Positions 8,483 through 45,333 of a stretch of 64,000 bases of DNA are shown in pieces. The stretch covers positions 159,218,001 through 159,282,000 of the forward strand of contig NC_086097.1 of assembly GCF_963921235.1 (NCBI RefSeq), in the 5' to 3' direction. This DNA comes from Mobula hypostoma. Taxonomy: Eukaryota. Every line of letters begins with the position of its first letter. Positions within the stretch are counted from its first letter, which is position 1. The position numbers were made by a program, and so were the translations under genes. The notes under the pieces are model-generated. The model did not search any database. It saw only the letters and a program-made list of their open reading frames with translations, and was not told the origin of the DNA.

Positions 8483-9040
8483 CATTCAAATATTTATTCT
8501 GTCAGGAGATTTGCGACGGCACTGTGCCGCAACAGACGAAATCTATGTACAGGAGCTGTCTTACTGGCAGACACCTCACAGACTGTCTTAAACTGGCTGC
8601 CTGTCATTATGAGCCAAATTTCAGGGAACTAGCAGAAAGTATGCAGCCCCAGTCATCACACTGAGTGCAACAGTCAATTTTTATTCATTTATTTTTCGTG
8701 TTGAAATAAAATTAAATAATGAAACATAGAATTAAAGATGCTGTAATGTGAACATTATAAAAATAAGTAATACTAATTATGATAGTATTTCTGGGTTGCA
8801 GGGTTTTACTTCCTTTCTTTTCTACCATGGTGCATGGCAGGGGAGCTACAGACATGCACACTGGACAGAAAGAACGGAACTAAAACCCTGCAACCCAGAA
8901 ACAATCTCTCTTTACAAGCAGCTTTCAATAGCAGAAGTATTGCTATATTACCATTATCCTAATTAGTATTACTTATTTTTATAATACTCACACTACAACA
9001 GTATTTGTGTATTTATTTTTCATTTTTCGGGATCTACTGG

Positions 9041-12000
9041 TGTGGTAACTTCTACCTTGAAAAAGGCACAGTCGACAACTTCGTGCCCAAGAAACAACTT
9101 TATCTCGATCTTCAAAACCGTTATGTATATAGTGAGGCTTTCATAACCCGTACTGCACGGCAGGGACACTATATACAAAGCCCACCAGAAGTAAAAAGAA
9201 CGGAAGTAAAACACCCCCATTATCCTAATTAGTATTAATTTACTTTTAATAATGCTCACATTACACACTTCCCCCCGCCCTTTAAAATCCAACATCCCCA
9301 AATGTAAAAAAAACTAGGAAATGAAAACAGTGGTGTTATTAACTTGCATACCCCTGAAAACTTATACTAGTACCTCAGCAACAGTTTATCAATACAAAAT
9401 AGAATAGAAATAGGAGGATAGAAATAGGAATAGAAATAGGAGGATATTTCAGATGAATATGTGGCTTGAAAAATGGTGCAAGGGGGAGGGAATCAAATTT
9501 CTGGGGCATTGGAACCAGATCTGGAGGAGGTGGGACCGGTACAAACAGGACGGTCTGCACCTGGGCTGGACTGGAACCAATGCCCAAGGGGGAGCGTTTG
9601 CTACTGTTGTTCAGGAGGATTTAAACTAATGTGGCAGGGGGATGGGAACAAGTGCAGAGAGACAGAGGGGTGTAAAATGAGGGTAGAAGCAAAAAGTAGG
9701 AAGGTGAAAAGTAAAAGTGGCAGGCTGGCAAATCCAGGGCAAAAATCAAAAAGGGCCACTTTTCAACATAATTCTATAAGGGCTAAGAGTGTTGTAAAAG
9801 CAAAATTGAAGGTATTGTGTGGCAATGCAAGGAGCATTCGTAACAAGGTGGATGAATTGAATGTGTAGATAGTTATTAATGAATATGATATAGTTGGGAT
9901 CACAGAGACATGGCTCCAGGGTGACCAAGGATGGGAGCTCAACATTCAGGGATATTCAATATTCAGGAGGGATAGACATGAAAGAAAAGGAGGTGGGGTG
10001 GCATTGCTGGTTAGAGAGGAGATTAACACAATAGAAAGGAAGGACATCAGCCGGGAGGATGTGGAATCGATATGGGTAGAGCTGCATAACACTAAGGGGC
10101 AGAAAACGCTGGTGGGAGTTGTGTACAGGCCACCTAACAGTAGTAGTGAGGTTGGGGATGGCATTAAATAGGAAATTAGAAATGTGTGCAATAAAGGAAC
10201 AGCAGTTATAATGGGTGACTTCAATCTACGTATAGATTGGGTGAACCAAATTGGTAAGGGTGCTGAGGAAGAGGATTTCTTGGAATGTATGCGGAATAGT
10301 TTTCTGAACCAACATGTCAAGGAACCAACTAGAGAACAGGCCATTCTAGACTGGGTATTGAGCAATGAGGAAGGGTTAGTTAGCAATCTTGTCGTGCGAG
10401 GCCCCTTGGGTAAGAGTGACCATAATATGGTGGAATTCTTCATTAAGATGGAGAGTGATATAGTTAATTCAGTAGTAAAGGTTCTGAACATAAAGAAGGG
10501 TAACTTTGAAGGTATGAGACGTGAATTAGCTAAGATAGACTGGCAAATGATACTTAAAGGGTTGAGGGTGGATATGCAATGGCAAGCATTTAAAGGTTGC
10601 ATGGATGAACTACAACAATTGTTCATCCCAGTCTGGCAAAAGAATAAACTAGGGAAGGTAGTGCATCCGTGACTGACAAGAGAACTTAGGGATAGTATCA
10701 ATTCCAAAGAAGAAGCATACAAATTAGCCAGAAAAAGCAGCACACCTGAGGACTGGGAGAAATTCAGAGTCCAACAGAGGAGGACAAAAGGCGTAATTAG
10801 GAAAGGGAAAAAAGATTATGAGAGAAAACTGGCAGGGAACATAAAAACTGACTGTAAAAGCTTTTATAGATATGTGAAAAGAAGAAGATTGGTTAAGACA
10901 AATGTAGGTCCCCTACAGACGGAAACAGGTGAATTGATTATGGGGAACAAGGACATGGTAGACCAATTGAATAACTACTTTGGTTCTGTCTTCACTAAGG
11001 AGGACATAAATAATCTTCCGGAAATAGTAGGGGACCGAGGGTCTAGTGAGATGGAGGAACTGAGGGAAATACATGTTACTAGGGAGGTGGTGTTAGGTAA
11101 ATTGAAGGGATTAAAGGCAGATAACTCCCCAGGGCCAGATGGTCTGCATCCCAGAGTGCTTAAGGAAGTAGCCCAAGAAATAGTAGATGCATTAGTGATA
11201 ATTTTTCAAAACTCTTTAGATTCTGGATTAGTTCCTGAGGATTGGAGGGTGGCTAATGTAATCCCGCTTTTTAAAAAAGGGGGGAGAGAGAAACGGGGAA
11301 TTATAGACCGGTAAGCCTGACATCGGTTGTGGGGAAAATGCTAGAGTCAGTTATCAAAGATGTGATAACAGCACATTTGGAAAGTGGTGAAATCATCGGA
11401 CAAAGTCAGCATGGATTTGTGAAAGGAAAATCATGTCTCACGAATCTCATAGAATTTTTTGAGGATGTAACTGGTGGAGTGAATAGGGCAGAACCAGTGG
11501 ATTTGGTATATTTGGATTTTCAAAAGGCTTTTGACAAGGTCCCACACAGGAGATTAGTGTGCAAACATAAAGCATACGGTATTGGGGGTATGGTATTGAT
11601 GTGGATAGAGAATTGGTTGGCACACAGGAAGCAAAGAGTGGGAATAAACGGGACCTTTTCAGAATGGTAAGCAGTGACTAGTGGGGTACTGCAAGGCTCA
11701 GTGCTGGGACCCCAGTTGTTTACAATATATATTAATGACTTTGACGAGGGAATTAAATGTAGAATCTCCAAATTTGCGGATGACACGAAGCTTGGAGGCA
11801 GTGTTAGCTGTGAGGAGGATGCTAAGAGGATGTAGGGTGACTTGGATAGGTTAGGTGAATGGGCAAATTCATGGCAGATGCAATTTAATGTGGATAAATG
11901 TGAGGTTATCTACTTTGGTGGCAAGAACAGGAAAACAGATTATTATCTGAATGGTGGCCGATTAGGAAAAGGGGAGGTGCAACGAGACCTGGGTGTCATT

Positions 12001-15000
12001 ATGCACCAGTCATTGAAAGTGGACATGCAGGTACAGCAGGCGGTGAAAAAGGCGACTGGTATGCTGGCATTCATAGCAAGAGGATTCGACCACAGGAGCA
12101 GGGAGGTACTATTGCAGTTGTACAAGGCCTTGGTGAGACCACACCTGGAGTATTGTGTGCAGTTTTTGTCCCCTAATCTGAGGAAAAACATTCTTGCCAT
12201 AGAGGGAGTACAAAGAAGGTTCACCAGATTGATTCCTGGGATGGCAGAACATTCATATGATGAAAAATTGGATCGACTAGGCTTATACTCGCTGGAATTT
12301 AGAAGATTGAGGGGGGATCTTATTGAAACGTATAAAATCCTAAAGGGATTGGACAGGCTAGATGTAGGAAGATTGTTCCCAATGTTGGGGAAGTCCAGAA
12401 CGAGGGGTCACAGTTTGAGGATAAAGGGGAAGCCTTTTAGGACAGAGATGAGGAAAAACTTCTTCACACAGAGAGTGGTGAATCTGTGGAATTCTCTGCC
12501 ACAGGAAACAGTTGAGGCCAGTTCACTGGCTATACTTAAGAGGGAGTTAGATATGGCCCTTGTGGCTACGGGGATCAGGGGGTATGGAGGGAAGGCTGGT
12601 ATAGGGTTCTGAGTTGGATGATCAGCCATGATCATACTGAATGGTGGTGCAGGCTCGAAGGGCCGAATGGCCTATTCCTGCACCTATTTTCTATGTAAAA
12701 TATCTGGAAAACATGACAAATTCAACATTCAATCTGACAACAACAAAAAAACTGTCCCTTCAAAGATTCAGTCTGTCAGGAGGTTTACGAGTGCGCTGTA
12801 ATCTGTGCACTACCCCCGGTGACCCAGCAGGCACTGCTGGCGAGGGTGTTTTGAGTGGATCTGGTTTTGGGGGCATGAGAGGGGTCTGTGTGTCTGCTTG
12901 AGAATGTCCATCATCCTCAGGGGACCCCGACCTCTCTGCCAGCGTCCGCCATCTGGCAAAGTCACTGGTGGACATGCTTCCACCGTAGTCTGTCTCACAA
13001 ATGGAAACTCCATGGAACTGTCTGCCTCTGAGCTGGTATCATGGCGCAAGTGCACATGGTCCTGATGTCTGCGGAAAACACGCCCATCAGTCATCTTAAC
13101 AACATAGGAGATAGGACCACTCTGCTTAAGAATAACCCCAGGCAGCCATTTCTGATTGTTTCTCACATAGACATTGTCATCTGGTTTTAACTGTCTCTCT
13201 TGCACATGTTGATCATGTCCCTCCTTCTGCTTTTCCTGCTTTCTCTCCGCTTTCGCCTTCATATCCGGGCGTAGCAGGTCCAATCTTGACTTGGGCCCAC
13301 GCCCCATCAGCATCTCTGCTGGAGTGCGGGCTGTCGTAGTCTGTGGCGCGAGGCAGTATTTAAACAGGAAATGTGAAAGCCGAATGCTAAGAGAGTCCTC
13401 TGTCATCTGCTTCAGGTCTTCCTTCACTGTCTGAACAGCCCGCTCAGCCAAACCATTTGAGGCTGGGTGGAAAGGGGCCATCCGAGTGTGATGAATGCCA
13501 TTCTGTTGCATGAACTCACTGAACAGTTCACTGGTGAATGTCGGGACATTATCAGTGACCAGAGTGTCAGGCAACCCGTGGACTGCAAACACTTGCCTGA
13601 GTTTGTCTGTGGTTGAGGGGGCTGTGATGTTGTTCATGATGTGAGCTTTGATCCATTTAGAATGCGCATCTACCATTACAAGAAGCATCTGCCCCATAAA
13701 AGGGCCAGCAAAGTCCAAATATAGCCTAGACCAGGGGTGGTCTGGCCACTCCCATGGATGCAAAGGAGCTGGTGGTGGCATATTCTGATTAGTCTGACAT
13801 TGCGTGCATGATTTTACCTTGTTCTTCAGATCCTCATCCACTCCTGGCCATCAAACGTAGGATTTTGCAAGACTTTTCATTTGAGACACTCCCGGGTGAG
13901 TCTCATGAATTTCCTCCACAACCTGTGAATAGCCGGGGGAGGCACAATGACCCTCGTCCCCCCCAGAAAATGCAGTCATCCTGCAGACTGAGTTCTGTCT
14001 TGCGTTTGGCATAAGGCCTCAGTTCCTCTCCTTTCACAACTCTGGGCCAACCTTGTAAAAGAAAACTCTTGACTTGGGACAGGACTGGGTCCCTCTCTGT
14101 CCACTGCTTGATCTGGGTCACCTTTACAGGTGTTTCTGACAGCCTCTCCAATGAAAACACGGTCTCTGGAGGCACATATGTAGCAACAGGTGTCTCAGGT
14201 AAAGGTAGTCAACTCAGTGCATCAGCGTTTGCATTATCCCCACCCGCTCTGTAAACTATAGTGTACTGGTAGCTGACAATGTAAGAGCCCAATGCTGTAT
14301 CCTGGCTGAGGCTAGCAGTGGGATGCCTCTAGTCTCACTGAACAGGCTCATCAGTGGTTTATGGTCCGTATAAATTGTAAATACGCATCCATAAAGGTAC
14401 TGATGAAAGCGTTTGACTGCAAAAACAATGGCCAGACCTTCTTTGTCTAGCTGTGAATATCCCTTCTCAGCAGCTGTCAGGGTATGTGAAGCAAAACCAG
14501 TAGGCTTCTCTGACCGGTCCTCCATTACATGTGAGTGAACGGCCCTGACTCCATCGGGTGAGGCATCGCATGCAAGGGTGATCTCCCTGTCTGGGTCATA
14601 GTGAACAAGCAGCTTCGCTGAGTGGAGGAGTTCTTTCACTTCCTTGAAAGCTTTCTCCTGCTCTTCACCCTACTGCCACTTAGTGCCATTGTGAAGCAAC
14701 TTATACAGTGGGTCAAAACCCTTGAGAGGTCAGGAAGAAGCTTGCCATAATAATTCACCATGCCCAAAAATGATCTGAGTTCCGTGATGGTCTTAGGGCT
14801 TGGAGCTTCCTTAATAGCTCTTACTTTATTCTCCACAGGGCAAAGCCCCTCAGCTGTGATCTTGTGTCCCAGGTAAGTCACACTCGATGCCAGGAATACA
14901 CATACCCTTTTTAGCTAAATGTCCCTTTTTGCTACAAGCATGGCAGACAGTGTCTTTGAATTTGCAATCATTTGCATAGTGCATTCCTCCACACTGGAAA

Positions 15001-15910
15001 CATTCCACCCACCTTGCCTGTTTACCAGTCTCCCTCCTGACTTGGTGCACTGCAGCTGACTGCGACCCCCCCCCCATGTCCTTTCTGGATATCCTTGACA
15101 TTATTAGCAGCTATCTCCACGCCCTGGGCAATCTCTAAGTTTTTCTTGAAAGTCAGCAGAGGGGTTTTCCCAAACAGGCGGCATTGTATGCCGTCATTAT
15201 TAATGCTGCACACTAATCTATCACGGAGCATGTCTTCCAACACCGCTCCGAAATCACAACACTCCGACAGCTGCCGAAGCTCGACCACGAAATTGGCCAC
15301 AGACTGACCTGGCTTCCTGAAACGGCTGTGAAACTTACACCATTGGACTATCACAGAAGGTTTCGGATTGTAGTAGTCCCCCACGAGCATGATCAGTTCG
15401 TTATATGGAATGTCCCCTGCTTTCCGTGGTGTGGCTAAATTTCTTATTAGCTTGTAATTCTTTGCTCCACACACACTCAGGAGAATAGAGTACTTCTTAG
15501 TCTCTTCAGTAATTCCACTAGCACAGAAAAAGTGTCCCAACCTTTCCACATACTCCGGCCAGTCCTCGTTTCCTTCCAGGAATTCACTGATAGTTCCAAA
15601 TGTAGCCAACTGAAACGCGAAGCTCCCGTTCGAAAAATGCGCTCATACGTTCACAAAACCAGTTCACCTCGTCGCCAAAAATATGTGGTAACTTCTACCT
15701 TGAAAAAGGCACACTCGACAACTTCATGCCCAAGAAACAACTTTATCTCGAACTTCAAAACCGTTATGTCTACACAGAGGCTTTCACAACCCGTACGGCA
15801 TGGTAGGAACACTATATACAAAGCCCACTGGAAGTAAAAAGAACAGAATTAAAAACCCCCATTATCCTAATTAGTATTAACTTACTTTTAATAATGCTCA
15901 CATTACAACA
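9041..15910 (-). mobile_element. Ty3/Gypsy (Mag-type) LTR retrotransposon with protease and most of RT deleted
   Basis: LTRs at 9041-9267 and 15684-15910 (TG..CA). 5-bp TSD actgg (9036-9040, 15911-15915). PBS tggcgacgagg (15667-15677, minus). Polypurine tract about 9268-9283. gag 15022-15609 (EDWPEYVERL, LRDRLVCSI) and two CCHC-type knuckles (14850-15101). RT tail and RNase H (14256-14881; LACDAS, YSQLDKEGLA, TDHKPL). Integrase 12810-13841 (LDFAGPF, VTDN, SNGLAERAVQT). Confidence 0.95.
9400..12696 (+). mobile_element. CR1 LINE (end of ORF1 plus full-length but disrupted ORF2) inserted in the Gypsy 3' UTR
   Basis: ORF1 esterase motif WLEKWCKGEG...YKQDGLHL (about 9461-9580). AP endonuclease (NARSIRNK, ITETWL, IMGDFN, LGKSDHN) and RT (PGPDGLHP, YLDFQKAFDKVPH, FADD) across ORFs 10184-12612 with stops and frameshifts. 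3' tail cctattttctatg. Probable TSD aaaata. Confidence 0.95.
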
Positions 15911-17140
15911 ACTGGGAAAGTCTCGAAGATCGACCGGTTGGCGACTGTTGTAGCGTGGATGAAATTACCGGAGAGACAGAGTCACTGGTAGATACAAAGC
16001 AGCTTCTTTATTCGACACAACAAGCAGGCATCTTACGGACGGAGACGCTTTCCGCAGAAAGGTCTGCTAGCTCAATGTGGGCTCGATATTTATATGCTAA
16101 ACACAAAGGCAATCGCTACTTAAAAAGTTACAGACAATGCATAGACAATACTTCTTATTGAAGCTACATACAAACATCACACCTTCGGATTTCATCCTTT
16201 CCTTCCGATGCCAACATGTCTGGGTTGGTATCCACAGCCTTTAGTTCAATCCACAATACATTTATTTGTCATTTTACGTGCTAACATAGAAGACAATTAA
16301 TATTTATAATGTATAGATAATACTGTCTTCGAAACTACAGCATCAGGCACCAGAAGCATCTGGTATTTACACCTTTTAGGAAGCCCATTGTGGTGGACTC
16401 AATCCACAGTCATTTGTCAAACAGTTAAAATAGAAGTCTGGTGGCCAAAGTCATTTAAGTGTTAACAAATCATTACCCAAAAAGATATCCACTCTAACAG
16501 TCCCTCCTCTTGGCCCTCCTGGACAAATTAAATTTGTATCAGGAAAGGCCAACCTAGGAGGATCTGCTCAAATAGGGCAGCAAAAATGCCCTGTCTCGAA
16601 ATTCCCCCCCCCCCAATTTTATGTACCTTGATATCTATCCTAGCATTACCTACCAAATGTTAAGCAGAGAGGCTGTTCCAAGTCTTTAGGAATGCAGCTC
16701 CTTTCATGTGCCTGCAGGCTGACTGCATCTTAAATCACATTCCTTTGTCTTCAGCCCTTTATCCTCTGGTCGCTGAAACTCTTCTTCCAGGAGCACCCAC
16801 AGGCTCTCTCATCGATGTACAGGAAGGGGTTGGGGCAGCCTCTACGTAAATGTCTGCAAGGACCTCTCCCCGGTGGCACCCCCCTTCCGAACTGTCCGGT
16901 CAATCACTGGCCCAGCTGCTGAAAAGGGCTCAGCTCCGCAGACTCGAGTGACTGCTTTCAGATGCTGTGTGCAGCCTGAAATGCCATCGAAGTGGTGGAA
17001 CTTCCCATCTCTGCTTTAACTCAAACATCCCTCCCCATCTATCTCCCAAATTATTTTCTATACTATGCTATAAAATTAATCATCTACCTTCAGCAACCAG
17101 CCTTCTTTACAGAGTACCATCGTCAGCACACTTTAGCAGG

Positions 17141-18844
17141 CTATTCATGGTTTTCCAACACGTTCTCAGTGTCTTCTGCCACGCTGTCAGCGTTTTCTGC
17201 CTTTGCGTTTTCTCCGGGTGTGTTTTCATCAGCTGTGGTCAGGTCTGCCATGGCCGGCTGGTGTTCCTCTCTTAGGTTCTCTGTAATTACATGGTTACTG
17301 GGTACACTTGGTTCCCCACTCTGTCTGTGGGAGCAACAAGAGGGTGAGTTGTATGCTTTAACCTGAGCCAAGTGTTTCCACTGGCTGCCTTGCCGAGTCT
17401 GTACACAGACACACGGATCATTCGTTAAGAGTACCATCTGAGGTCCTATCCACCTGGGGGCAAATCCCGGCCTTTCTGACAGCACCCTCGCCATAACTTG
17501 GTCGCCGGGCTGTGGAAGAACTATCCCTTTTCCCTCTGGCTCTTTCTGATCAGCGATACGCTGTTGTTGTTTCGCTCGGTCCTTTAATACTTTAAGTTGA
17601 CAGTAACTTTTCCCCCTGCTTTTTGGCAGGGACCCTGTGCAGTCTATCTGGATGATTTCCCAGGGTCCCCTCGGCTGAGGCTGATTTGCCAGCTGTAGCT
17701 TTCTGCCCTCACCAGGGTTATGCTGGGCACAAGTGATACAACGGCGGCAGAATTTCTCAACATCCCCATGTGTCCAGCACCCACCTGGACCCTTCTTTGC
17801 TCCTTTTCTCCTCCATTTTCCCTTCTCTTCTGCCTCTACCTCTTCATATAATTTTACTAAGCTGGCTTCTGTCATTTCCTCCTGCACACTTGCAATTTCA
17901 ATTGCCTCTTGTTCCCCTGCTGCCTTATTTGCAGTAATGTCTGCCCTCGGAGGAACTGGGAAAACTTTATGTTCTAAAGTGGCCACAGTCTCTCTGAGTA
18001 TCCCCTGGTGTTTTTGTTCCTTCGCTATATCCTGAACAGTGGTCAGTGTGTCAGTTTGTATAGGATCCAGCTTCGGGGGTTTCAACAGACCTTCCTCTAT
18101 TTTAATTGGGTCTACCTCTACTTGTCCATAATCTTGCTTGTCTCTAGCCCACACAGCTGGGAACTGCTGACAAGGTAACCCATAGACACCATCCTGGCTC
18201 CGGTCTCTGGTGATTGGGGCAGCTGTGCCTATGCTAGCCAGGCCATGTATTCTGTTGGTTGTGCGCGTTCGCTGCCCCTGACTCGTCCATATTATTTCTC
18301 CCTTTCCTGAATCTATGGCGGCTCCTGCTTCCCTTAGGATGTCTATTCCAGGGATCATGCCCTCATTGTTTGGACATACCCAGAAATACACTGGAAGCTG
18401 CACTCCCCCGATTTCTAGTATTTGCTCCTCACTTCTTTCTGCTTTTACTGTTTTCCCTCCAACATCCCTGATATAACTGGCCTGTCCTATTGTTGGTGAG
18501 GGTAAGTCTGTTATCGATACCGATGCCCCTGTGTCCACTATCATATTGCATTGCCGTCCCCCTAACAATGCCGTTGTGTACATCCGCAGGTCACCAGCGC
18601 TGGCAGTGGATCCCGCTACCACATCTTTTTCTGCCTTAAGAGGCGCCGTTACTAACTCTTCTATCTGATCGACAGTCAGACTGTGTGCTGATGGGGTGAG
18701 TGACTGGGTGTCTGCTGTGACCTTTGCCAGGGTTTTCCCCCTCCCTTTTGGACACTGTCTCCAGCCATGTCCCGATAGGCCACAGCTGTAGCATATCAAC
18801 ACCTTCACTGCCTTATACCTGGTCCGGCAGTCCTTTGCAGGCAA
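17141..18844 (-). CDS. Proviral NC-protease-deleted pol fusion ORF (567 aa)
   Basis: CCHC knuckle CYSCGLSGHGWRQC, aspartic protease IVDTGAS, RT N-terminal stub (VWARDKQDYG...QGILRET), integrase Zn-finger tail CRRCITCAQHN, PWEIIQID and GPY/F-like C-terminus (PRWIGPQMVLL). No YxDD and no complete DDE core. Confidence 0.8.
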   Translation of the reverse strand: MPAKDCRTRYKAVKVLICYSCGLSGHGWRQCPKGRGKTLAKVTADTQSLTPSAHSLTVDQIEELVTAPLKAEKDVVAGSTASAGDLRMYTTALLGGRQCNMIVDTGASVSITDLPSPTIGQASYIRDVGGKTVKAERSEEQILEIGGVQLPVYFWVCPNNEGMIPGIDILREAGAAIDSGKGEIIWTSQGQRTRTTNRIHGLASIGTAAPITRDRSQDGVYGLPCQQFPAVWARDKQDYGQVEVDPIKIEEGLLKPPKLDPIQTDTLTTVQDIAKEQKHQGILRETVATLEHKVFPVPPRADITANKAAGEQEAIEIASVQEEMTEASLVKLYEEVEAEEKGKWRRKGAKKGPGGCWTHGDVEKFCRRCITCAQHNPGEGRKLQLANQPQPRGPWEIIQIDCTGSLPKSRGKSYCQLKVLKDRAKQQQRIADQKEPEGKGIVLPQPGDQVMARVLSERPGFAPRWIGPQMVLLTNDPCVCVQTRQGSQWKHLAQVKAYNSPSCCSHRQSGEPSVPSNHVITENLREEHQPAMADLTTADENTPGENAKAENADSVAEDTENVLENHE

Positions 18845-18904
18845 AACAAGCCCTCCGGAACATCACAGCAGCTGTATCCACTATACCCACTTGATGATTT
18901 CTCT

Positions 18905-19720
18905 AACAACAGGAATTCTGCAGATGCTGGAAATTCAAGCAACACACATCAAAGTTGCTGGTGAACGCAACAGGCCAGGCAGCATCTCTAGGAAGAGGTA
19001 CAGTCGACGTTTCAGGCCGAGACCCTTCGTCAGGACTAACTGAAGGAAGAGTTAGTAAGAGATTTGAAAGTGGGAGGGGGAGGGGGAGATCCAAAATGAT
19101 AGGAGAAGACAGGAGGGGGAGGGATGGAGCCAAGAGCTGGACAGGTGATTGGCAAAGGGGATATGAGAGGATCATGGGACAGGAGGTCCGGGGAGAAAGA
19201 CAAAGGCGGGGGGTAACCCAGATGATGGGCAAGGGGTATAGTCAGAGGGATAGAGGGAGAAAAAGGAGAGTGAGAGAAAGAATGTGTGTATAAAAATAAA
19301 TAATGGATGGGGTACGAGGGGGAGGTGGGGCATTAGTGGAAGTTAGAGAAGTCGATGTTCATGCCATCAGGTTGGAGGCTACCCAGACGGAATATAAGGT
19401 GTTGTTCCTCCAACCTGAGTGTGGCTTCATCTTTACAGTAGAGGAGGCTGTGGCTAGACATGTCAGAATGGGAATGGGATGTGGAATTAAAATGTGTGGC
19501 CACTGGGAGATCCTGCTTTCTCTGACGGAGAGAGCGTAGATGTTCAGCAAAGCGGTCTCCCAGTCTGTGTCGGGTCTTGCCAATATATAGAAGGCCACAT
19601 CGGGAGCACCGAACTCAGTATATCACCCCAGCTGACTCACAGGTGAAGTGTCGCCTCACCTGGAAGGACTGTCTGGGGCCCTGAATGGTGGTAAGGAGGA
19701 AGTGTAAGGGCATGTGTAGC
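18905..19720 (-). mobile_element. 5'-truncated Penelope-like element inserted in the proviral gag
   Basis: Reverse complement of about 44514-45327 (GIY-YIG region plus 3' end). 8-bp TSD atttctct at 18897-18904 and 19721-19728. Confidence 0.95.
19001..19038 (-). ncRNA. Minimal type I hammerhead ribozyme motif in the Penelope 3' end
   Basis: Minus strand reads tagtc-CTGACGA-agggtctcggcct-GAAA-cGTC-gactg, identical to 45195-45232. Confidence 0.85.
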
Positions 19721-19743
19721 ATTTCTCTTGACTTTTCTTTGGT

Positions 19744-20358
19744 CTATCTCACTGGGCATGAAACTATCTCAGAGTAGTTGGACCCTACCGTTATGCCTAA
19801 ATCTAAAACTCCTTGGTGGGCTGAGCTCAGGCCTTCCTTCAGCATTTTTAGGAAGATTTTGTTGTCCCTCCCTGGATTATCCAACCCTGAATACTCCTCG
19901 TACACTCGGTATTTACGTTCTGCATAATCCATGGCTGTCTCGTCAGCTTTTTGAATCACTGCCATTATCGTTCCCCAGCTACTCTCGCCTCCTCCCAGCC
20001 GCTGCCTCACTTCCCCTTTAAAGGAGCGAAATCTTTCTTCATTACTGGCGATCCTGGTAGTTGTCCATGTACCATCCCGCACCCCCTGGGCCATCCTGTC
20101 CCACATATTCCTCGGGCACTTGGCTTTCACTAACACATATATATGTTTAGGGTGCATCTGGTGAATTTCAACCATTTCCTCGAGTTTGCGCCAGAACTCT
20201 GAATTCCCACAGGCGACTTTAAGTGAGGACAGCTCGGACAAAATGCTCTGTTTCTCCCCGGGAGTGAAGGGCTTATGAACAGTCGTAATCAAGGTTAAGG
20301 GCTGGCTCGGATCATCAGGGTTCTCAACCTGACGTTGCCTGATCTCAATAGGTGCCAT
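19744..20358 (-). CDS. Proviral gag capsid-like ORF (204 aa)
   Basis: Lies downstream of the PBS and leader. HKPFTPGEKQSIL start motif and an MHR-like VIQKADETAMDYAERKYRVYEEYSGL. Gag-like sequence continues towards the zinc knuckles once the Penelope insertion and a frameshift are removed. Confidence 0.75.
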   Translation of the reverse strand: MAPIEIRQRQVENPDDPSQPLTLITTVHKPFTPGEKQSILSELSSLKVACGNSEFWRKLEEMVEIHQMHPKHIYVLVKAKCPRNMWDRMAQGVRDGTWTTTRIASNEERFRSFKGEVRQRLGGGESSWGTIMAVIQKADETAMDYAERKYRVYEEYSGLDNPGRDNKIFLKMLKEGLSSAHQGVLDLGITVGSNYSEIVSCPVR

Positions 20359-20874
20359 TCTGGTAGATTTTATCTGGGTAAAACCTCTTCCTGAGAATTC
20401 CCCGCACTAATTCCCACACTACGCAAAATATCATAGACGGGTAGCAGTTAAACAGTACAAACTTAAAACCACAGGGTATGTATTCCACAATCTGCCAATT
20501 TTCAGTACCCGAACTCATGATGCCTACTGTATTCCTTTGCATCGCACTTGCACATGCATACACTAAAATGCAGCTCCCCGAACGAGTATACACGCCCCTA
20601 CGCTGGCGTCTCGAAAGTCTCGAACCGTACCGTTGGTTACCACCTTTGGCAACCGGTGGTTCCAAATTAACATGCAAAGATTCCTCACTTACATAAACAC
20701 ACATGCACACGCACACACTACTTTTATATTTACCAGTTCAGCTCTCCGCGTTCGTGATTACCTCGAGACCCGTGCACCTCCGACCGAAAAGATCCAAGTG
20801 TGAGTGTTATTTTAGAAAAATACTCACCAACTTAGACTGCTAGGAACGCTGGCCACACGACGGGTCATGAAGGT

Positions 20875-20892
20875 ATCCCACTCCTGACACCA
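20875..20892 (-). promoter_or_regulatory. Primer-binding site complementary to the tRNA-Leu(CAG) 3' end
   Basis: tggtgtcaggagtgggat, 2 nt from the 5' LTR. Complement of ...atcccactcctgacacca, the vertebrate tRNA-Leu(CAG) 3' end as recalled. Confidence 0.85.
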
Positions 20893-21475
20893 AATGTTGT
20901 AACGTGGATGAAATTACCGGACAGACAGTCACTGGTAGATACAAAGCAGCTTCTTTATTCGACACAACAAGGTACAGCAGGCATCTTAACGGACGGAGAC
21001 GCTTTCCGCAGAAAGGTCTGCTAGCTAAATGTGGGCTCGATATTTATACGCTAAACACAAAGGCAATCGCTACTTAAAAAGTTACAGACAATGCATAGAC
21101 AATGCTTCCTTTTGAAGTTACATACAAACATCACACCTTCGGATCTCATCCTTTCCTTCTAATGCCAACATGTCTGGTTTGGTATCCACAGCCTTTAGTT
21201 CAATCCACAATACATTTATTTGGCATTTTACGTGCTAACATAGAAGACAATTAATATTTATAATGTATGGATAATACTGCCTTCGAAACTACAGCATCAG
21301 GCACCAGAAGCATCTGGTATTTACAACTTTTAGGAAGCCCATTGTGGTGGACTCAATCCACAGTCCTTTGTCAAACAGTTAAAATAGAAGTCTGGTGGCC
21401 AAGTCATTTAAGTGTTAACAAATCATCTATCCAAAAAGAAATCCACTCTAACAGCGACCACTACTGTAATGCATA

Positions 21476-22988
21476 GAGGGGAGGGAAGAGATTGCTGAGC
21501 CTCTGGCTAGGATCTTTATGTCCTCGTTGTCCACGGGAATGGTACCGGAGGATTGGAGGGAGGCAAATGCTGTCCCATTGTTCAAAAAAGGTAGTAGGGA
21601 TAGTCCGGGTAATTATAGACCAGTGAGCCTTACCTCTGTGGTGGGAAAGCTGTTGGAAAAGATTCTAAGAGATAGGATCTATGGGCATTTAGAGAATCAT
21701 GGTCTGATCAGGGACAGTCAGCATGGCTTTGTGAAGGGCAAATCATGTCTAACAAGCCTGATAGAGTTCTTTGAGGAGGTCACCACGCATATTAATGAGG
21801 GTAGTGCAGTGGATGTGATCTATATGGATTTTAGTAAGGCATTTGACAAGGTTCCACACGGTACGCTTATTCAGAGAGTCAGAAGGCATGGGATCCAGGA
21901 AAGTTTGGCCAGGTGGATTCAGAATTGGCTTGCCTGCAGAAGGCAGAGGGTCATGGTGGAGGGAGTACATTCAGATTGGAGGATTGCGACTAGTGGTGTC
22001 CCACAAGGATCTGTTCTGGGACCTCTACTTTTTGTGATTTTTATTAACGACCTGGATGTGGGGGTAGAAGGGTGGGTTGGCAAGTTTGCAGATGACACAA
22101 AGGTTGGTGGTGTTGTAGATAGTGTAGAGGATTGTCAAAGATTGCAGAGAAACATTGATAGGTTGCAGAAGTTAGTGGGCTGAAAAGTGGCAGATGGAGT
22201 ACAACCCGGAGAAGTGTGAGGTGGTACACTTTGGAAGGACAAACCCCAAGGCAGAGTACAAAGTAAATGGCAGGATATTTGGTAGTGTGGAGGAGCAGAA
22301 GAATCTGGGGGTACATGTCCACAGATCCCTGAAAGTTGCCTCACAGGTGGATAGGGTAGTTAAGAAAGCTTATGGGGTGTTAGCTTTCATGAGTCGAGGG
22401 GTAGAGTTTAAGAGTCGCGATGTAATGAAGCAGCTCTATAAAACTCTGGTTAGGCCACATTTGGAGTACTGTGTCCAATTCTGGTCGCCTCACTATAGGA
22501 AGGATGTGGAAGCATTGGAAAGGGTACAGAGGAGATTTGCCAAGATGCTGCCTGGTTTAGAGAGTATGCATTATGATCAGAGATTAAGGGAGCTAGGGCT
22601 TTACTCTTTGGAGAGAAGGAGGATGAGAGGAGACATGATAGAGGTGTACAAGATAATAAGAGGAATAGATAGAGTGGATAGCCAGCGCCTCTTCCCCCGG
22701 GCACCACTGCTCAATCCAAGAGGACATGGCTTTAAGGTAAGGGGTGGAAAGTTCAAGGGGGATATTAGAGGAAGGTTTTTTACTCAGAGAGTGGTTGGTG
22801 CGTGGAATGCACTGCCTGAGTCAATGGTGGAGGCAGATACACTCGTGAAGTTTAAGAGACTACTAGACAGGTATATGGAGGAATTTAAGTTGGGGGCTTA
22901 TATGGGAGGCAGGGTTTGAGGGTCGGCACAACATTGTGGGCGAAAGGGCCTGTACTGTGCTTTACTATTCTATGTTCTATGTTCTATA
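21476..22988 (+). mobile_element. Young 5'-truncated CR1 LINE (RT and C-terminus)
   Basis: ORFs 21518-22183 and 22194-22919 (NYRPVSLTS, DFSKAFDKVPH, SGVPQGSVLGP, FADD, RPHLEYCVQFW) separated by one frameshift. Tail (ttctatg)n. Confidence 0.95.
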
Positions 22989-23699: not shown

Positions 23700-25860
23700 T
23701 TTTGTCCAGGAAGGAACAGCTGGCTTTTGCATGACATTTTTTTCCAGCAGCTTGTATGTGAAGATCATTAGGAAACAAATTGGAAGGATGTGAAAAGCCA
23801 TGGAGTAGTGAAAATGAGGGGTTTCAACTAGTAGCAAGGCATCAAACAATGCAAAACAAGTGGAGCAAGTATCAGTGGGGAACATTTAAAAATAAACCAC
23901 AATCAAAATATTAATTGGATTAGAATAGCCAGAGGTAGGGAAATAAACCACTCCAGGTGGAAACTGTCAATTAAAGAATGGCCATTTTCAATGGGAAAAG
24001 GATGGATATCGCCTGAGTAAATTGGAATCTATTTTAGGTAGGTGAATTAGTGTCAAATAATGACAGGCCATTAAAGTGGATGTGTTTCAGATGTAGCATG
24101 TTCTCAGGAAGGAGAATGATGGTGGAATTAAAAAACAAAGGTACACAAATAGTCAAAAATATAGAGAGTAAATACACCACAAAAAGACAATGTACAAGCC
24201 AGAGAATGGTTTATCAAATCTGAGAACCAAGATGGTCATAGGAAGTTAATGGTGAGTATTGAGAATCAGCAAACATGAAAGTGAATGCAAAAATATTTTA
24301 TGGTGTACAAATATGAAAAGTGTTGCAGATGGAAAAATGATCAGGGATCAATGGGAAAATCTACATAAGGGACTGAATTGCCAAATGAGTAACTAACATT
24401 TATTTTCACGAAGGAAGAAGATACTACTGGAAGATCAGGGAAGGAATGCATAATTGAGGTCTTGTGTATTTAGACTGGGTAGTGGGGGAATTTATTGAAA
24501 TAATATTCAATTACAACAATTTCAAAAGTTAAAGATGTGAATTGATTACAGAAAACCAGCATGGGATTGTTAAAGTTAATTAAAATCCAACTAACTTGAT
24601 AAAGTTGAAGATCAAAAAACTGCATATAGTGAATATCTGAATTATAAACAGAAAATATTGGAAACACTCATCAGGGAATAAGGAATGCCTTTGATAGGGT
24701 AAGCTCAGAGATAATATGATGATGCAGAGGAGCTTTTTGAGGAAGTTACCAGGAACATGGATGAAGGCAAGACAGTGGGTGTTACTTATGGGACTTTAAC
24801 ACAACATTTGACAAGGTCCTGTGTGGGAGGTTAGTCAAAAAAGTTCAGTCACTTGTCATTCAAGATGAAGTAGTAAATTGGATTAGACTTTGACTTTGTG
24901 GGAGAAGCCAGAGAGTGGAAGTAGATGGTTGCCTCTGACTGGAGGCCTGTGACTAGTGGTGTGCTGCAGGGATCAGTGCTGGGTACTTTGCTGTTTGTCA
25001 TTTACATCAATAATCTGGATGATTATGTAGTCAGCTGGATCAACAAATTTGTGGATGATACCAAGATTGGGGCTGTAGTGGGCAGCAAGGAATGTTATTA
25101 TAGCTTGCAGAGGGGTCTGCATCAGCTGGCAAAATGGTTTGAAAAATGGAAGGTGAAATTTAATGCAGATTTTGCACTTTGGAAGGATCAACCAAGATAG
25201 TTCTTACACAGTGAATGGTAGGGCACTGAGGAGTGTGCTAGAAAAAAAACGGATCTGGGAATACAGGTCCAAGCGGCATTGTGTGCAGATATGGTCATAA
25301 AGAAATCTTTTGGCACATCGGCCTTCATAAATAAATGTATTGAGAACAGGAGATGGAATGTTATGTTGAAGTTGTACAAGATGTTGGTGAGGTGTAATTT
25401 GGAGTATTGTGTGCAGTTTTGAAATGTATAAACAACATTGAAAGAGTATAGAGAAAATTTACAAGGATGTTGGAGGACCTGAATTGCAAGGAAAGATTGA
25501 CAGACTGTATTCCTTAGAATTTAGAGGAGATTTGAGAGAGGTAAACAACATTGAGGGATATAAATAGGGTAAATGCAAGTAGGAGTTTTCCACTGGGTTG
25601 GGTGGGATTACAACCTGAAGGTCATAGGCTAAGGGTGAAAGGTCAAACGCTAAGGGGAGCATGAGGGCAAACTTCTTCACTCAGAGGATGGAATGAGATG
25701 CCAGCACAAGTGGTCCATGCAAGCTTGCTTTCTAAGTTTGGATAGGTACATATGGTAGGTGTATGGAGGATTATGGTCTTGGTGCAGGCCAATGGGAGTA
25801 TGTAGTTTAAATGGTTTTGGCAAGGACTAGAAGGGCTGAAGGGCCTGTTTCTGTGCTCAC
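23700..25860 (+). mobile_element. Degraded CR1 LINE fragments (an older 23700-24700 piece and a 24730-25860 RT/3' piece)
   Basis: ORF 24925-25200 ([24 protein letters not shown]...KFVDDTKIG). CR1-like 3' end gggctgaagggcctgtttctgtgct. The upstream part is only weakly recognisable. Confidence 0.75.
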
Positions 25861-28403: not shown

Positions 28404-30042
28404 CAGGTGTCCCCCGCTTTTCGAATGTTCGCTTTACGAAACCTCACTGTTACGAAAGACCTACATTAGTACCCTGTTTTCGCTTTCAGAAGGTGTTTTC
28501 ACTGTTACGAAGAAAGGCATCACGTGATAAAAAATCAGCGCGCGTAAAAATCAGCGCACGATAAAAGGCAGCACACGCCCCGAGCAGCCGCTCTTCCCGG
28601 GATTCAGAACTGCATTCTTGCCGGCATTGCTTAAACATGTTGCATTGAGCAGCCATTAGCAAGATAAGTTCAAGTTCTAAGGTGTTGGAAAAGCCTGAAA
28701 GAGCTCGTAAGGATGTTACACTTAGCGTAAAACTAGACATAATTAAGCGTTTCAATCGTGGTGAACGAAGCAAGGACAAAGTGAGTTTGGATTGTGGAAG
28801 CTGACAAAGATGATTTTGAAGAGGTTTTGGCATCCCATGACCAAGATCTGATAGATGAAGAGCTAATGCAGTTGGAAGAGGAAAGGATAACAATCGAAAC
28901 CAAATGCAATAGCGAAAGTAATGCAACTGCGTGAAATTTTCGCTGCAATGAGAAAGTACAATTTTAATTTTGAAAGGGTACATAGGTTTAGGGGATATTT
29001 TCAGGATGGTTTGAGTGCTTACAAAGAACTGTGTGACAGAAAAATGCGCGAGGCTCAGCAGTCAAGCAAGCCTTCCACATCAGCCACAGCAGACGACGAA
29101 CCTCGACCTTCGACATCGAGGCGGGCAGTCATAGGAGAAGATGAGCTGCCTGCTCTAATGGAAACAGACAATGAGATGGCACTCCCGTGTCCCACCACCC
29201 CAACCCCTAGGCCCCGGACAGATACTGTACCGATTCGTGGAGAATGCAGCGGTAGCTGGGAGGCACACAACACATCTTTAAGAAAAAAGCCGAAATAAAC
29301 AGGCTAATTAATTAGGTGCCGCCCGGCACGTAATTGTCGGCCCAGATCAGAGATGATTACCGATTGCGTCGCCTCTGATCTGGGCTGACATTTACGTGCT
29401 GGGCAGCACCTAATTAATTAGCATGTTTATTTCGGCTTTTTTCTTAAGGATGTGCTGTGTGTCTCCTGGCTACCGCTGCATTCTTCGCGGCAATGTATCG
29501 GGACGGCGGCCTGGAGGGTGGGGGCCACTGCACCACCCCAACCTGTGACGACTCAGTCTAACACACCATCATCAGTGTGCTCGGCACTGTTTTCCCAATT
29601 CTGGTAAGTGATACTACATTGTACATATATTATTTCTACTTTATACAGGCTGTGTATTTTTACGTGTTATTTGGTAGGTTTGGCGGCTTCATAGTTTACC
29701 GGAGAGCGCGTTTATGCCAACAGCGCTTGCGTGAGATTTTCTGCCGAGAGCGCTTGCGTGAGGTTTTTGCTACGGAGATCTTTGCAGGCAATCACTGTAG
29801 AGAAGTATTTCTACTTTACATAGGCTGTGTATTTATCATATAATTCCTGCTTTTACTATATGTTACTGTTATTTTAGGTTTATGTGTTACTTGGCATGAT
29901 TTGTTAGGTTATTTTTGGGTCTGCGAACGCTCACAAAATTTTCCCATATAAATAAATGGTAATTGCTTCTTCGCTTTACGACATTCCGGCTTATGAACCG
30001 TTTCATAGGAACGCTCTACCTTCGGATGGTGGGGGAAACCTG
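28404..30042 (+). mobile_element. Non-autonomous Tigger-like DNA transposon
   Basis: TIRs caggtgtcccccgc / ggtgggggaaacctg, flanked by TA (28401-28402, one base off the left TIR, and 30043-30044). Removal restores the CR1 FYKYV sequence. Internal remnants RKDVTLSVKLDIIKRFNRGERSKD joined to acidic C-terminal EEVLASHDQDLIDEELMQLEEE. Confidence 0.85.
29241..29484. repeat. Long inverted repeat (about 112-bp arms, 20-nt spacer)
   Basis: agaatgcagcggtagc...taattaattaggtgc...cccagatcagag (29241-29352) pairs with ctctgatctggg...gcacctaattaatta...gctaccgctgcattct (29373-29484). Confidence 0.92.
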
Positions 30043-31107
30043 TATGTGGAAAAATAACAGGATAAGACATGAGAGAATAGGACCAGTCAAGTGTGACAGT
30101 GGAAAAGTGTTTGTGGAACAGGAGGATATAGCTGAAGTACTTAATGACTACTTTGCTTCAGTATTCACTATGGAAAAGGATCTTGGCAATTGCAAGGATG
30201 ACTTGCAGCAGGTTGAAAAGCTTGGGCATATAGACATTAAGGAAGAGGATGTGCTGGAGCTTTTGGAAAGCATCAAGTTGGATGTCACTGGGACTGGATG
30301 AGATGTACCCCAGGCTACTGTGGGAGGCGAGGGAGGAGATTGCTGAGCCTCTGGCGATGATCTTTGTATCATCAATGGAGACGGGGGGAGGTTTTGGAGG
30401 ATTGGAAGGTTGCAGGTATTGCTCCCTTATTCAAGAAATGGAGTATAGATAGCCCAGGACATTATAGACCAGTGCATCTTATTTCAGTGGTTGGTAAATT
30501 AATGAAAAAGATCCTGAGAGTCAGGATTTATGAACATTTGGAGAGGCATAATATGATTAGGAATAGTCAGCATGACATTGTCAAAAGCAGGTCATGTCTT
30601 ACGAGCCTGATTGAATTATTTTGAAGATGTGACTGAACACGTTGATTAAGGTAGAGCAGTAGATGTAGTGTACGTGGATTTCAGCAAGGTATTTGATAAA
30701 GTGACCTATGCAAGGCTTGCTGAGAAAGTCAGGAGGCATGGGATCCAAGGGGGCATTACTTTGTAGATCCAGAATTGGCTTGCCCACAGAAGTCAAGGAG
30801 TTGTAGACAGTTCATATTCTGCATGGAGGTCGGTGACCAGTGGTGTGCCTCAGGGATCTGCTCTGGGACCCCTTCTCTTCATGAATTTTATAATTAACTG
30901 GGATGAGGAAGTGGAGGGATGGGTTAGTAAATTTGCTGATGACACAAAGGTTGGGGGTGTTGTGGATAGTGTGGAGGGCTGTCAGAAGTTACAGCAGGAT
31001 GATGCGATGCAAAACTAAGCTGAGAGGTGGCAGATGGAGTTCAACTCAGATAAGTGTGAGGTGGTTCATTTTGGTAGGTCAAATATGATGGCAGAATATA
31101 GTATTAA

Positions 31108-43246: not shown

Positions 43247-45333
43247 TCCATCACCGACTTTATCCGCTCAGGGGATCTCCCATCCACTGCTACCAACCTT
43301 ATAGTTCCCACACCCCGCACTTCCCATTTCTACCTCCTACCCAAGATCCACAAACCTGCCTGTCCTGGCCGACCTATTGTCTCAGCTTGCTCCTGCCCCA
43401 CCGAACTCATTTCTGCATACCTCGACACTGTTTTATCACCCCTTGTTCAATCCCTTCCGACCTTTGTTCGTGACACTTCTCACGCTCTTAAACTTTTCGA
43501 TGATTTTAAGTCCCCTGGCCCCCACCGCTTTATTTTCACCATGGATGTCCAGTCCTTATATACTTCCATCCCCCATCAGGAAGGTCTCAAAGCTCTACGC
43601 TTCTTTTTGGATTCCAGACCTAATCAGTTCCCCTCTACCACCACTCTGCTCCGTCTAGCGGAATTAGTCCTTACTCTTAATAATTTCTCCTTTGGCTCCT
43701 CCCGCTTCCTCCAAACTAAAGGTGTAGCTATGGGCACCTGTATGGGTCCTAGCTATGCCTGCCTTTTTGTTGGGTTTGTGGAACAATCTATGTTCCGTGC
43801 CTATTCTGGTATCTGTCCCCCACTTTTCCTTCGCTACATCAACAACTGCATTGGCGCTGCTTCCTGCACGCAAGCAGAACTCGTTGACTTTATTAACTTT
43901 GCCTCCAACTTTCACCCTGCCCTCAAGTTTACCTGGTCCATTTCCAACACCTCCCTCCCCTTTCGAGATCTTTCTGTCTCTGTCTCTGGAGACAGCTTAT
44001 CCACTGATGTCTACTATAAGCCTACTGACTCTCACAGCTTTCTGGACTATTCCTCTTCTCACCCTGTCTCTTGCAAAAATGCCATCCCCTTCTCTCAATT
44101 CCTCCGTCTCTGCCGCATCTGCTCTCAGGATGAGGCTTTTCATTCTAGGACGAGGGAGATGTCTTCCTTTTTTAAAGAAAGGGGCTTCCCTTCCTCCACT
44201 ATCAACTCTGCTCTTAAACGCATCTCCCCCATTTCACGTACATCTGCTCTCACTCCATCCTCCCGCCACCCCACTAGGAATAGGGTTCCCCTGGTCCTCA
44301 CCTACCACCCCACCAGCCTCCGGGTCCAACATATTATTCTCCGTAACTTCCGCCACCTCCAACGGGATCCCACCACTAAGCACATCTTTCCCTCCCCCCA
44401 TCTCTCTGCATTCCGCAGGGATCGCTCCCTACACAACTCCCTTGTCCATTCGTCCCCCCCATCCCTCCCCACTGATCTCCCTCCTGGCATTTATCCATGT
44501 AAGTGGAACAAGTGCTACACATGCCCTTACACTTCCTCCCTTACCACCATTCAGGGCCCCAAACAGTCCTTCCAGGTGAGGCATCACTTCACCTGTGAGT
44601 CGACTGGGGTGATATACTGCGTCCAGTGCTCCCGATGTGGCCTTTTATATATTGGCGAGACCCGACGCAGACTGGGAGACCACTTTGCTGAACATCTACG
44701 CTCTGTCCGCCAGAGAAAGCAGGATCTCCCAGTGGCCACACATTTTAATTCCACATCCCATTCCCATTCTGACATGTCTATCCACGGCCTCCTCTACTGT
44801 AAAGATGAAGCCACACTCAGGTTGGAGGAACAACACCTTATATTCCGTCTGGGTAGCCTCCAACCTGATGGCATGAACATCGACTTCTCTAACTTCCGCT
44901 AAGGCCCCACCTCCCCCTCGTACCCCATCTGTTACTCATTTTTATGCACACATTCTTTCTCTCACTCTCCTTTTTCTCCCTCTGTCCCTCTGAATATACC
45001 TCTTGCCCATCCTCTGGGTCCCCCCCCATTGTCTTTCTTCCCGGACCTCCTGCCCCATGATCCTCTAGTATCCCCTTTTGCCTATCACCTGTCCAGCTCT
45101 TGGCTCTATCCCTCCCCCTCCTGTCTTCTCCTATCATTTTGGATCTCCCCCTCCCCCTCCAAGTTTCAAATCCCTTACTCACTCTTCCTTCAGTTAGTCC
45201 TGACGAAGGGTCTCGGCCTGAAACGTCGACTGCACCTCTTCCTACAGATGCTGCTTGGCCTGCTGCGTTCACCAGCAACTTTGATGTATGTTGCTTGAAT
45301 TTCCAGCATCTGCAGAATTCCTGTTGTTTGCGT
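43247..45333 (+). mobile_element. 5'-truncated Penelope-like element with an uninterrupted RT-GIY-YIG frame but mutated RT active site
   Basis: ORF 42971-44902: from ITDFIRSGDLP onward it is PLE RT, Cys linker and GIY-YIG. LRYINN replaces the LRYIDD of the 1-2935 copy. Pyrimidine-rich 3' UTR with a hammerhead motif. Confidence 0.95.
45195..45232 (+). ncRNA. Minimal type I hammerhead ribozyme motif
   Basis: Helix I tagtc/gactg. Core CUGACGA (45200-45206). Helix II agg/cct with a 7-nt loop. GAAA (45220-45223). Loopless helix III followed by the GUC triplet, with predicted cleavage after 45227. Confidence 0.85.

Follow-up and report, generated by a model that had tools for sequence, protein, structure and literature searches.

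Structure of the element

The 64,000-nucleotide stretch of the Mobula hypostoma genome that we analysed (the window) contains an element on the minus strand, bounded on both sides by long terminal repeats (LTRs); apart from the flanking duplication, all features of the element given below lie on that strand. The 5′ LTR (559 bp; 20895..21453) and the 3′ LTR (554 bp; 15946..16499) are close to the ~555 bp of the initial annotation. Both run from TGT to ACA, and the 5′ LTR has a TATA-like box at LTR position 406 and AATAAA at 495. The two align with 532 matches, 19 mismatches and 11 gap columns (K2P 0.035), a divergence that would convert to ~80 million years at the rate assumed in PMC4422223, a passage of which itself warns against that rate. 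The 5-bp target-site duplication (TSD) proposed earlier was seen as the same 5-mer directly outside each LTR (15941..15945 beyond the 3′ LTR and 21454..21458 beyond the 5′ LTR), which does not extend to 6 bp; identical flanking 5-mers would arise by chance about once in 1000 cases.

The primer-binding site (PBS; 20875..20892), two bases past the 5′ LTR, is the annotated 18-nt Leu site: it is complementary at 18/18 positions to the 3′ end of tRNA-Leu(CAG) and equals the first 18 nt of a human tRNA-Leu(CAG) reverse primer given in a passage of PMC7229842. A splice-donor-like site (G|GTGAGT; 20821..20830), previously placed about 50 nt after the PBS, lies 47 nt past it and is a consensus match only; the polypurine tract is at 16500..16511. 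By standard retroviral biology, a transcript from the LTR would have been primed by tRNA-Leu(CAG), reverse-transcribed and integrated, giving the 5-bp TSD.

A retroviral Gag split by insertion and frameshifts

The capsid (CA; 19759..20358) has an N-terminal β-hairpin, the expected MHR-like motif near 19953 and a frameshift near 19756, at the CA end. Structure prediction, which the initial annotation had recommended, gave a two-domain retroviral CA with the N-terminal β-hairpin (pLDDT 88.6). The best structural match was MLV CA (Z 9.3, rmsd 4.2, 182 aligned), and the predicted fold aligned over its full length with MLV, CAEV and HIV CA. Every match in an Atlas search with the capsid was <0.9, and these are treated as leads only.

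The second of two CCHC knuckles is intact (18752..18793) and the first (18827..18851) is damaged by a small frameshifting deletion, in agreement with the one intact and one partly deleted knuckle noticed before; the Mobula copy P0004 has both. Frameshifts and a GIY-YIG-bearing, Penelope-like insertion of 816 bp (18905..19720) split gag. The insertion is bounded by an 8-bp duplication (18897–18904 and 19721–19728), and a second, 94% identical copy of it lies at 44514–45328.

A 5-bp TSD, a Leu PBS and CCHC knuckles had initially been taken as a contradictory mix that might mark a new lineage. This did not hold up: 15/44 Gag relatives have two knuckles, so the combination is not paradoxical. Knuckles and GPY/F-like motifs were already noted in snakehead retrovirus (SnRV)-related endogenous retroviruses (ERVs) in a section of PMC4299795, and a passage of PMC8922424 states that phylogeny is not tracked by PBS type. 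Knuckle number, TSD length and PBS do not separate ERV classes cleanly.

Deletions in pol and the region downstream

An aspartic protease (18310..18590; DTG at 18535) is followed by an N-terminal remnant of reverse transcriptase (RT; 17954..18163) and then by a deletion of ~525 residues comprising the RT core, the tether and most of RNase H. The end of RNase H and the integrase (IN) N-terminus persist as remnants (17600..17950), with the His pair deleted and the CxxC and first Asp region kept; the IN C-terminal domain (17351..17599), with its PRWxGP motif, follows a deletion of the catalytic core. The annotated retroviral-style integrase motifs are therefore present as CxxC, the first catalytic Asp region and PRWxGP. 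In a PDB sequence search the IN C-terminus resembled MLV at E 0.12, and with the Pol frame the search had no match below E 0.1. A word-indexed search with the deleted Pol frame found one match among 7999 longer candidates and none among 7998 of near length, which is weak evidence of absence.

Between pol and the polypurine tract, neither env nor any other protein family was detected in the 3′ region (16512..17140); a PH-domain-like motif considered there had no Pfam match and was dropped. The description of the element as env-less stands for this copy only, in which no env was detected in the element frames with Pfam, and not for the family. When relatives were checked, as the initial annotation had advised, L005 proved to carry a TLV_coat env (E 1e-20). 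This copy is now incapable of making Gag, RT or integrase. The Penelope-like insertion, the three pol deletions, and the absences of a matrix-like domain and a gag–pro stop described below were all missing from the initial annotation.

The RT, RNase H and IN cores were removed by three in-frame deletions, and the chance that all three would keep the frame is 1 in 27. Because such deletions resemble changes fixed in a transcribed lineage, we lean somewhat towards a history in which env and the RT and IN cores were already missing from the RNA, which a complete member of the family then mobilised in trans. Alternatively, the deletions would have arisen after insertion. None of the 32 contig pieces listed, a small selection of 476,607, bridged a pol deletion junction, and contig X10 record 10 ceases to fit at 17600, with another 113 letters to run; the deletions may therefore be private to this copy. 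The Penelope-like insertion and the gag frameshifts would represent damage after insertion.

Placement through relatives

The element belongs to a populous set of copies. Related contigs covered 30/30 bins in 4/4 runs, each position being spanned by tens of contigs that differ, and the closest named copy (Gag 91%) is from Mobula hypostoma, which agrees with the cartilaginous-fish host suggested initially. Further relatives come from sharks, rays, turtles, sturgeon, eel and minnow; the Mustelus XP_078069418.1 cluster, Heterodontus XP_067870587.1, Mobula XP_062926799.1 and the herring-cluster L004/L005 have only ‘uncharacterized’ labels. A description of the family was not found in the open literature (Repbase, Dfam and subscription papers lay outside the search). 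Viral-contig scans with P0001, P0078 and a class I alignment gave no match and thus no named gamma or epsilon reference, and metagenome loci L006–L012 (7/11) were set aside as distant, Gypsy-like matches.

As the element has no RT core, its placement runs through these relatives. In a fragment tree of the Pol remnants (418 columns, with P0107 and 17 other references), the remnants and the shark-cluster Pol P0107 were sisters (support 100/99), with 41% identity between them, compared with 14–30% for the other 17 references; the P0107 cluster includes a Mustelus asterias protein, and SnRV fell in an open fork. The RT tree used 22 relatives out of 43 rows, and an earlier 43-row tree, for which the careful search was incomplete, had the same topology. 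The SnRV reference (L001) was recognised by its 10,688 nt and UAGGGC junction, L014 was confirmed as foamy by a PDB match, and class I labels were inferred from Pfam domains and hosts rather than from names. Shark sequences, a fish clade and SnRV, itself a long branch, shared one branch (91/91, below the tool’s starring threshold). The relatives were nested inside the sampled retroviruses, with foamy viruses lying further from class I than they do (96/92).

Gag points in the same direction. A profile of the capsid matched SnRV Gag at 97.8% (E 1.1e-12, 165 columns), whereas controls reached 54.5% (Gag_p30-type), 32.9% (Gag_p24-type) and 61.7% (Gypsy-type Gag), and the CA type and RT type are joined in single proteins (P0002, P0111 and P0113). 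On these sequence comparisons, the element is probably (about 80%) a dead provirus from a multi-copy ray ERV family of the SnRV-related group (clade Huo), the SnRV-like option among those first listed. It would extend the SnRV-related retroviruses by a two-knuckle, Leu-primed branch that is thinly described.

An ordinary Ty3/Gypsy retrotransposon would share the missing env and the open gag–pol, and a neighbouring Gypsy-type element is also flanked by a 5-bp TSD. We nevertheless regard this origin as highly improbable: forcing the shark rows with Gypsy was rejected (AU 0.026), identity to Gypsy rows is 14–19%, the CA has an N-terminal β-hairpin and aligns with retroviral CAs as described above, and the relatives encode a tether and retroviral RNase H. 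The retroviral assignment of the initial annotation is upheld. Foamy viruses (clade Tu) were rejected more strongly (AU 0.007), and their Gag generally has no knuckles, which are present here.

The case for an epsilon-like ERV (class I, clade Mu) with an atypical TSD draws on the two knuckles, typical of epsilonretroviruses (PMC1224870), on the fold search, which ranked WEHV2 and WDSV Gag second and third, and on the MLV-like IN C-terminus. It is quite unlikely, given that class I formed its own clade without the shark rows (100/99), that forcing them together was rejected, if only at AU 0.044, and that the ERV1 TSD is typically 4 bp according to a section of PMC4299795, against 5 bp here.

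A lokiretrovirus or an ERV-L/ERV-S/ERV4-type element also seems quite unlikely, although the trees contained no ERV-L, ERV-S, ERV4, lokiretrovirus or class II RT. Leu priming is typical of ERV-L. ERV3 and ERV4 typically have a 5-bp TSD, and TGT...ACA ends are likewise shared (PMC4299795, in part); clade Huo takes in ERV-L according to a passage of PMC8922424. Against this, knuckles occur here and in P0004, whereas XtERV-S has none and ERV3/ERV4, as described in part of PMC4299795, have neither knuckles nor a GPY/F-like motif. Lokiretroviruses are reported from lampreys, bony fish, amphibians and reptiles; their Env is paramyxovirus-F-like, unlike the TLV_coat env of L005, and they are sister to all retroviruses, whereas the relatives here nest inside the sampled retroviruses, which include no lokiretrovirus reference.

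The Gag N-terminus and the gag–pro junction

Upstream of the capsid is an open frame of 122 codons (20372..20737) with a moderately hydrophobic stretch. In this copy a frameshift near 20370 puts it out of register with CA, compared with related contigs, which place it in register; in P0022, a 55%-identical copy, a homologous hydrophobic stretch is in frame with CA. Downstream, gag and pro share one frame, and their junction (18591..18751) is open, without a stop codon, here as in P0004; 4/4 complete loci (two of them one family) have an in-frame TAG between gag and pro.

These features raise the possibility, in our view a doubtful one, that within the same SnRV-related ancestry the family has become adapted as an intracellular retrotransposon: env lost, the matrix-like domain replaced by an unrelated hydrophobic N-terminal extension and the gag–pro stop lost. 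The lineage would then be ray-specific and intracellularised, with gag fused to pro-pol and a Gag:Pol ratio set otherwise than by readthrough, a picture to which we give as little credence. The extension would serve to anchor Gag at an internal membrane, by analogy with mouse IAP and MusD. In mice, IAP uses a signal-peptide mechanism.

A profile of the relatives’ N-terminal, matrix-like Gag domain recovered four held-out relatives (E 9e-16 to 1e-6) and matched none of the element’s three frames, but it also missed SnRV Gag, along with three relatives whose N-termini are long. The openness of the upstream frame is rare, being reached in one frame by 1/3000 shuffles and in any frame by 5/3000; it is modestly hydrophobic, with a KD of 1.72 that 8% of shuffles reach, and the T-rich leader of L005 translates hydrophobically too. 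The frame had no Pfam match and no usable Atlas match. Leader and CA were bridged by 2/32 contig pieces listed (of 476,607), whereas contig X1 record 8 diverges upstream of 20279.

Stop loss is sporadic among relatives, as P0113 reads through where its cluster-mates P0010 and P0114 end, and a passage of PMC13517186 reports that MoMLV stop-to-sense mutants cannot replicate. Among 40 of 919 related-contig differences listed, none creates a stop, a sample too partial to serve as proof. Env loss, moreover, is read from this deleted copy alone, with no intact family member among the copies seen. The absent matrix-like domain and absent stop may alternatively reflect simple decay.

Should both the swap of the matrix domain and the loss of the stop be family-wide and selected, they would offer a case in which convergent intracellularisation could be tested outside mammals and, if true, an independent repeat of the IAP/MusD route within a basal retroviral clade. 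Mouse IAP and ETn/MusD show comparable env loss, high copy number and trans-mobilised non-autonomous members (PMC6466679, in part), but are of betaretroviral ancestry, so the analogy would be functional only.

Comparison with SnRV and its relatives

For the SnRV-related provirus that we favour, SnRV itself shares capsid homology, the RT clade, the order PR-RT-RH-IN, a single frame for gag and pro, a CCHC-type NC and a splice-donor-like site in the leader. It differs in having a single knuckle, a long N-terminal region in Gag, the in-frame TAG, env, accessory frames and another PBS, and identity to the Pol remnants is only 21%. The shark, turtle and fish relatives are closer, supplying the nearest Pol and, from Mobula, the nearest Gag, and many have two knuckles; unlike the element, most of those with a long Gag have the matrix-like domain at its N-terminus and a stop after gag, and L005 has env.

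Within cartilaginous fish, the SnRV-like CmiERV lineage I of the elephant shark, as presented in part of PMC4422223, has longer LTRs, another PBS, one knuckle seen and an env. By eye, the same source shows an LTR start of TGTTAG and end of ACA, a TT spacer before the PBS, and RT and IN motifs, all shared with the element, and gives a similar LTR divergence of 0.033.

A defective SnRV-related retrovirus

The endogenous retrovirus (ERV) occupies 15946–21453 on the minus strand. Its LTRs (559 and 554 bp; K2P 0.035) have TGT...ACA termini, and a 5-bp duplication exactly abuts both of their outer ends. The 18-nt primer-binding site (PBS) is identical to the tRNA-Leu(CAG) 3′-end primer as printed in the consulted part of PMC7229842, a splice-donor-like site stands 47 nt downstream of it, and a polypurine tract directly adjoins the 3′ LTR. 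The ~555-bp LTRs, 5-bp target-site duplication (TSD), Leu PBS and donor-like site about 50 nt past it, proposed in the initial annotation, were thus borne out; neither the LTR nor the internal region recurs elsewhere in the 64-kb window.

The 205-residue capsid frame, run by HMMER over the complete set of 1.84 billion representatives, gave 44 matches. Names were looked up for 25 of them, and those with a name are uncharacterized proteins from Mobula hypostoma itself (91% over 70 residues), horn, whale and bamboo sharks, four turtles, sturgeon, eel, minnow and two characiform fish. The predicted structure (pLDDT 88.6) comprises two helical domains and, at its N-terminus, a beta-hairpin; the closest solved structure is the MLV capsid (Z 9.3, rmsd 4.2, 182 aligned), and HTLV-1 and BLV capsids rank top in Foldseek. 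The capsid profile matched snakehead retrovirus (SnRV) Gag at 97.8% (E 1.1e-12), compared with 54.5, 32.9 and 61.7% for Gag_p30-, Gag_p24- and Gypsy-type controls.

Two CCHC knuckles, part of the mix that in the initial annotation might mark a poorly sampled lineage, are ordinary in this branch, since 15 of the 44 capsid matches carry two (6 carry one, and 23 none, mostly because those sequences end early). Six fish proteins (P0020, P0032, P0035, P0041, P0042 and P0044; the two named are from characiforms) combine this capsid type and two knuckles with N-terminal coiled-coil repeats and are possibly Gag-only or domesticated genes. In BFVD the capsid model scored best against a chelonid alphaherpesvirus 5 protein that bears the label ICP4c (E 4e-5, 182 columns, 18% identity); because turtles carry close Gag relatives, that record may hold a captured gag or host fragment.

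The ERV Pol remnants grouped with P0107, their closest Pol relative, at 100/99 in a tree of the query and 18 references, from which foamy rows were omitted since they covered RT alone. A second tree, built on RT from 22 of the 43 extracted rows, put SnRV on one branch with the shark pair and three fish-type Pols (91/91). SnRV was recognised by its UAGGGC junction and foamy by a PDB match, class I and Gypsy labels were inferred from Pfam domains and hosts, and the tree's scope excludes ERV-L/S, ERV4, loki and class II rows. Constrained trees that joined the shark pair to class I (AU 0.044) or foamy rows (AU 0.007) were rejected, as was the Ty3/Gypsy grouping against which the initial annotation had asked its proposal to be checked (AU 0.026). 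Both trees and the capsid match favour the SnRV-like option among those first listed.

The ERV is a genuine and defective member of a group that is known but has been thinly described. The suggestion of a poorly sampled lineage holds as to thin description, but the group itself is already known: the consulted parts of the sources describe it as clade Huo, from all major vertebrate lineages (PMC6001957), and report an SnRV-like ERV from elephant shark (PMC4422223). Our literature search found no description of the ERV's own family; it may be included in supplements to PMC6001957 and PMC10435555.

Deletions, env and proposed mobilisation

Three lesions break gag in this copy: a frameshift near 19756, an insertion of 816 bp that carries GIY-YIG and is flanked by an 8-bp duplication, and a small deletion that damages the first knuckle. 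The GIY-YIG (Penelope-like) fragment, at 18905–19720, has two further copies in the window (44514–45328 and 1–472, ~94%) and very high depth in all four contig runs described below.

A single frame of 573 codons begins at the second knuckle, passes through protease and reaches as far as the end of integrase. Relative to P0107, whose cluster includes a Mustelus protein, it lacks ~525 residues (RT core including YxDD, tether and RNase H active site), and the integrase His pair and core are also missing, with the frame preserved across all three deletions. At the LTR-pair mutation rate ~1.4 stops and 6 frameshifts would be expected in this frame, and none was observed; the rate read from the LTRs may be too high for indels, or the two LTRs may not have been identical at insertion. 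Beyond the integrase C-terminal domain this frame continues into an acidic tail of 70 residues (17141–17350) with no family match.

Neither SnRV env nor that of L005, a herring-cluster relative, matched the ERV (tblastn, E up to 0.05), and none of the three frames of its 3′ region matched Pfam. The description as env-less fits this copy but, because the copy is heavily deleted, need not hold for the family; L005 itself carries a TLV_coat env (Pfam, 1e-20). The herring-cluster relative (L004/L005) has intact Pol along with this env, and its gag is internally damaged.

ERV-related contigs from each of four runs, which come from four studies under three organism codes (one run possibly the source), covered every one of the 30 bins. 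Tens of differing contigs lie at each position, which shows a multi-copy family, contig depth not being copy number. Among the 32 pieces listed of 476,607, none bridged a pol deletion junction, one departed at the integrase junction, four bridged the gag–pro junction and two joined leader and capsid.

Anatomy, homology and breaks were observed; the inferred history is that LTR-driven transcription, reverse transcription primed by tRNA-Leu and integration with a 5-bp stagger produced the copy. By analogy with ETn/MusD, which are mobilised in trans (consulted part of PMC6466679), an already deleted RNA was probably mobilised in trans (roughly 0.6). The copy is now inert.

Two features of the ERV are odd. 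The first concerns the N-terminal domain of Gag: a profile built from eight relatives and tested on 21 targets recovered four held-out relatives and matched none of the three ERV frames (hhalign 0.05%); it also missed SnRV Gag and three long relatives. Upstream of the capsid lies a 122-codon open frame, of a length reached in 1 of 3,000 shuffles in one frame and 5 of 3,000 in any frame, and its register is the one linked to capsid in related contigs and in P0022, a distant copy; its hydrophobic stretch is modest, being matched by 8% of shuffles. The second is that neither the ERV nor the Mobula copy (P0004) has any stop between gag and pro, where all four complete loci carry an in-frame TAG; one relative has lost that stop sporadically. 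MoMLV mutants without this stop fail to replicate, according to the consulted part of PMC13517186. A bolder reading, in which the family adapted to an intracellular life by swapping its matrix and losing both env and the stop, seems unlikely. The IAP signal peptide is a precedent for such adaptation.

Neighbouring elements

Just upstream, a second minus-strand LTR element (9041–15910; ~225-bp LTRs, 90% alike) encodes Gypsy-type RT/RNase H, has an apparent 5-bp duplication at 9036–9040 and 15911–15915, and ends 30 bp from the ERV. A LINE-type reverse transcriptase frame (21470–22919; RVT_1, E 3e-28) begins 12 bp right of the ERV TSD, with related copies near 11200–12200, 24900–25400 and 30400–31100. 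Long inverted repeats with short spacers at 29236–29489 and 8739–9000 (117-nt arms at 90%; nested 46–56-nt arms) resemble small non-autonomous elements.
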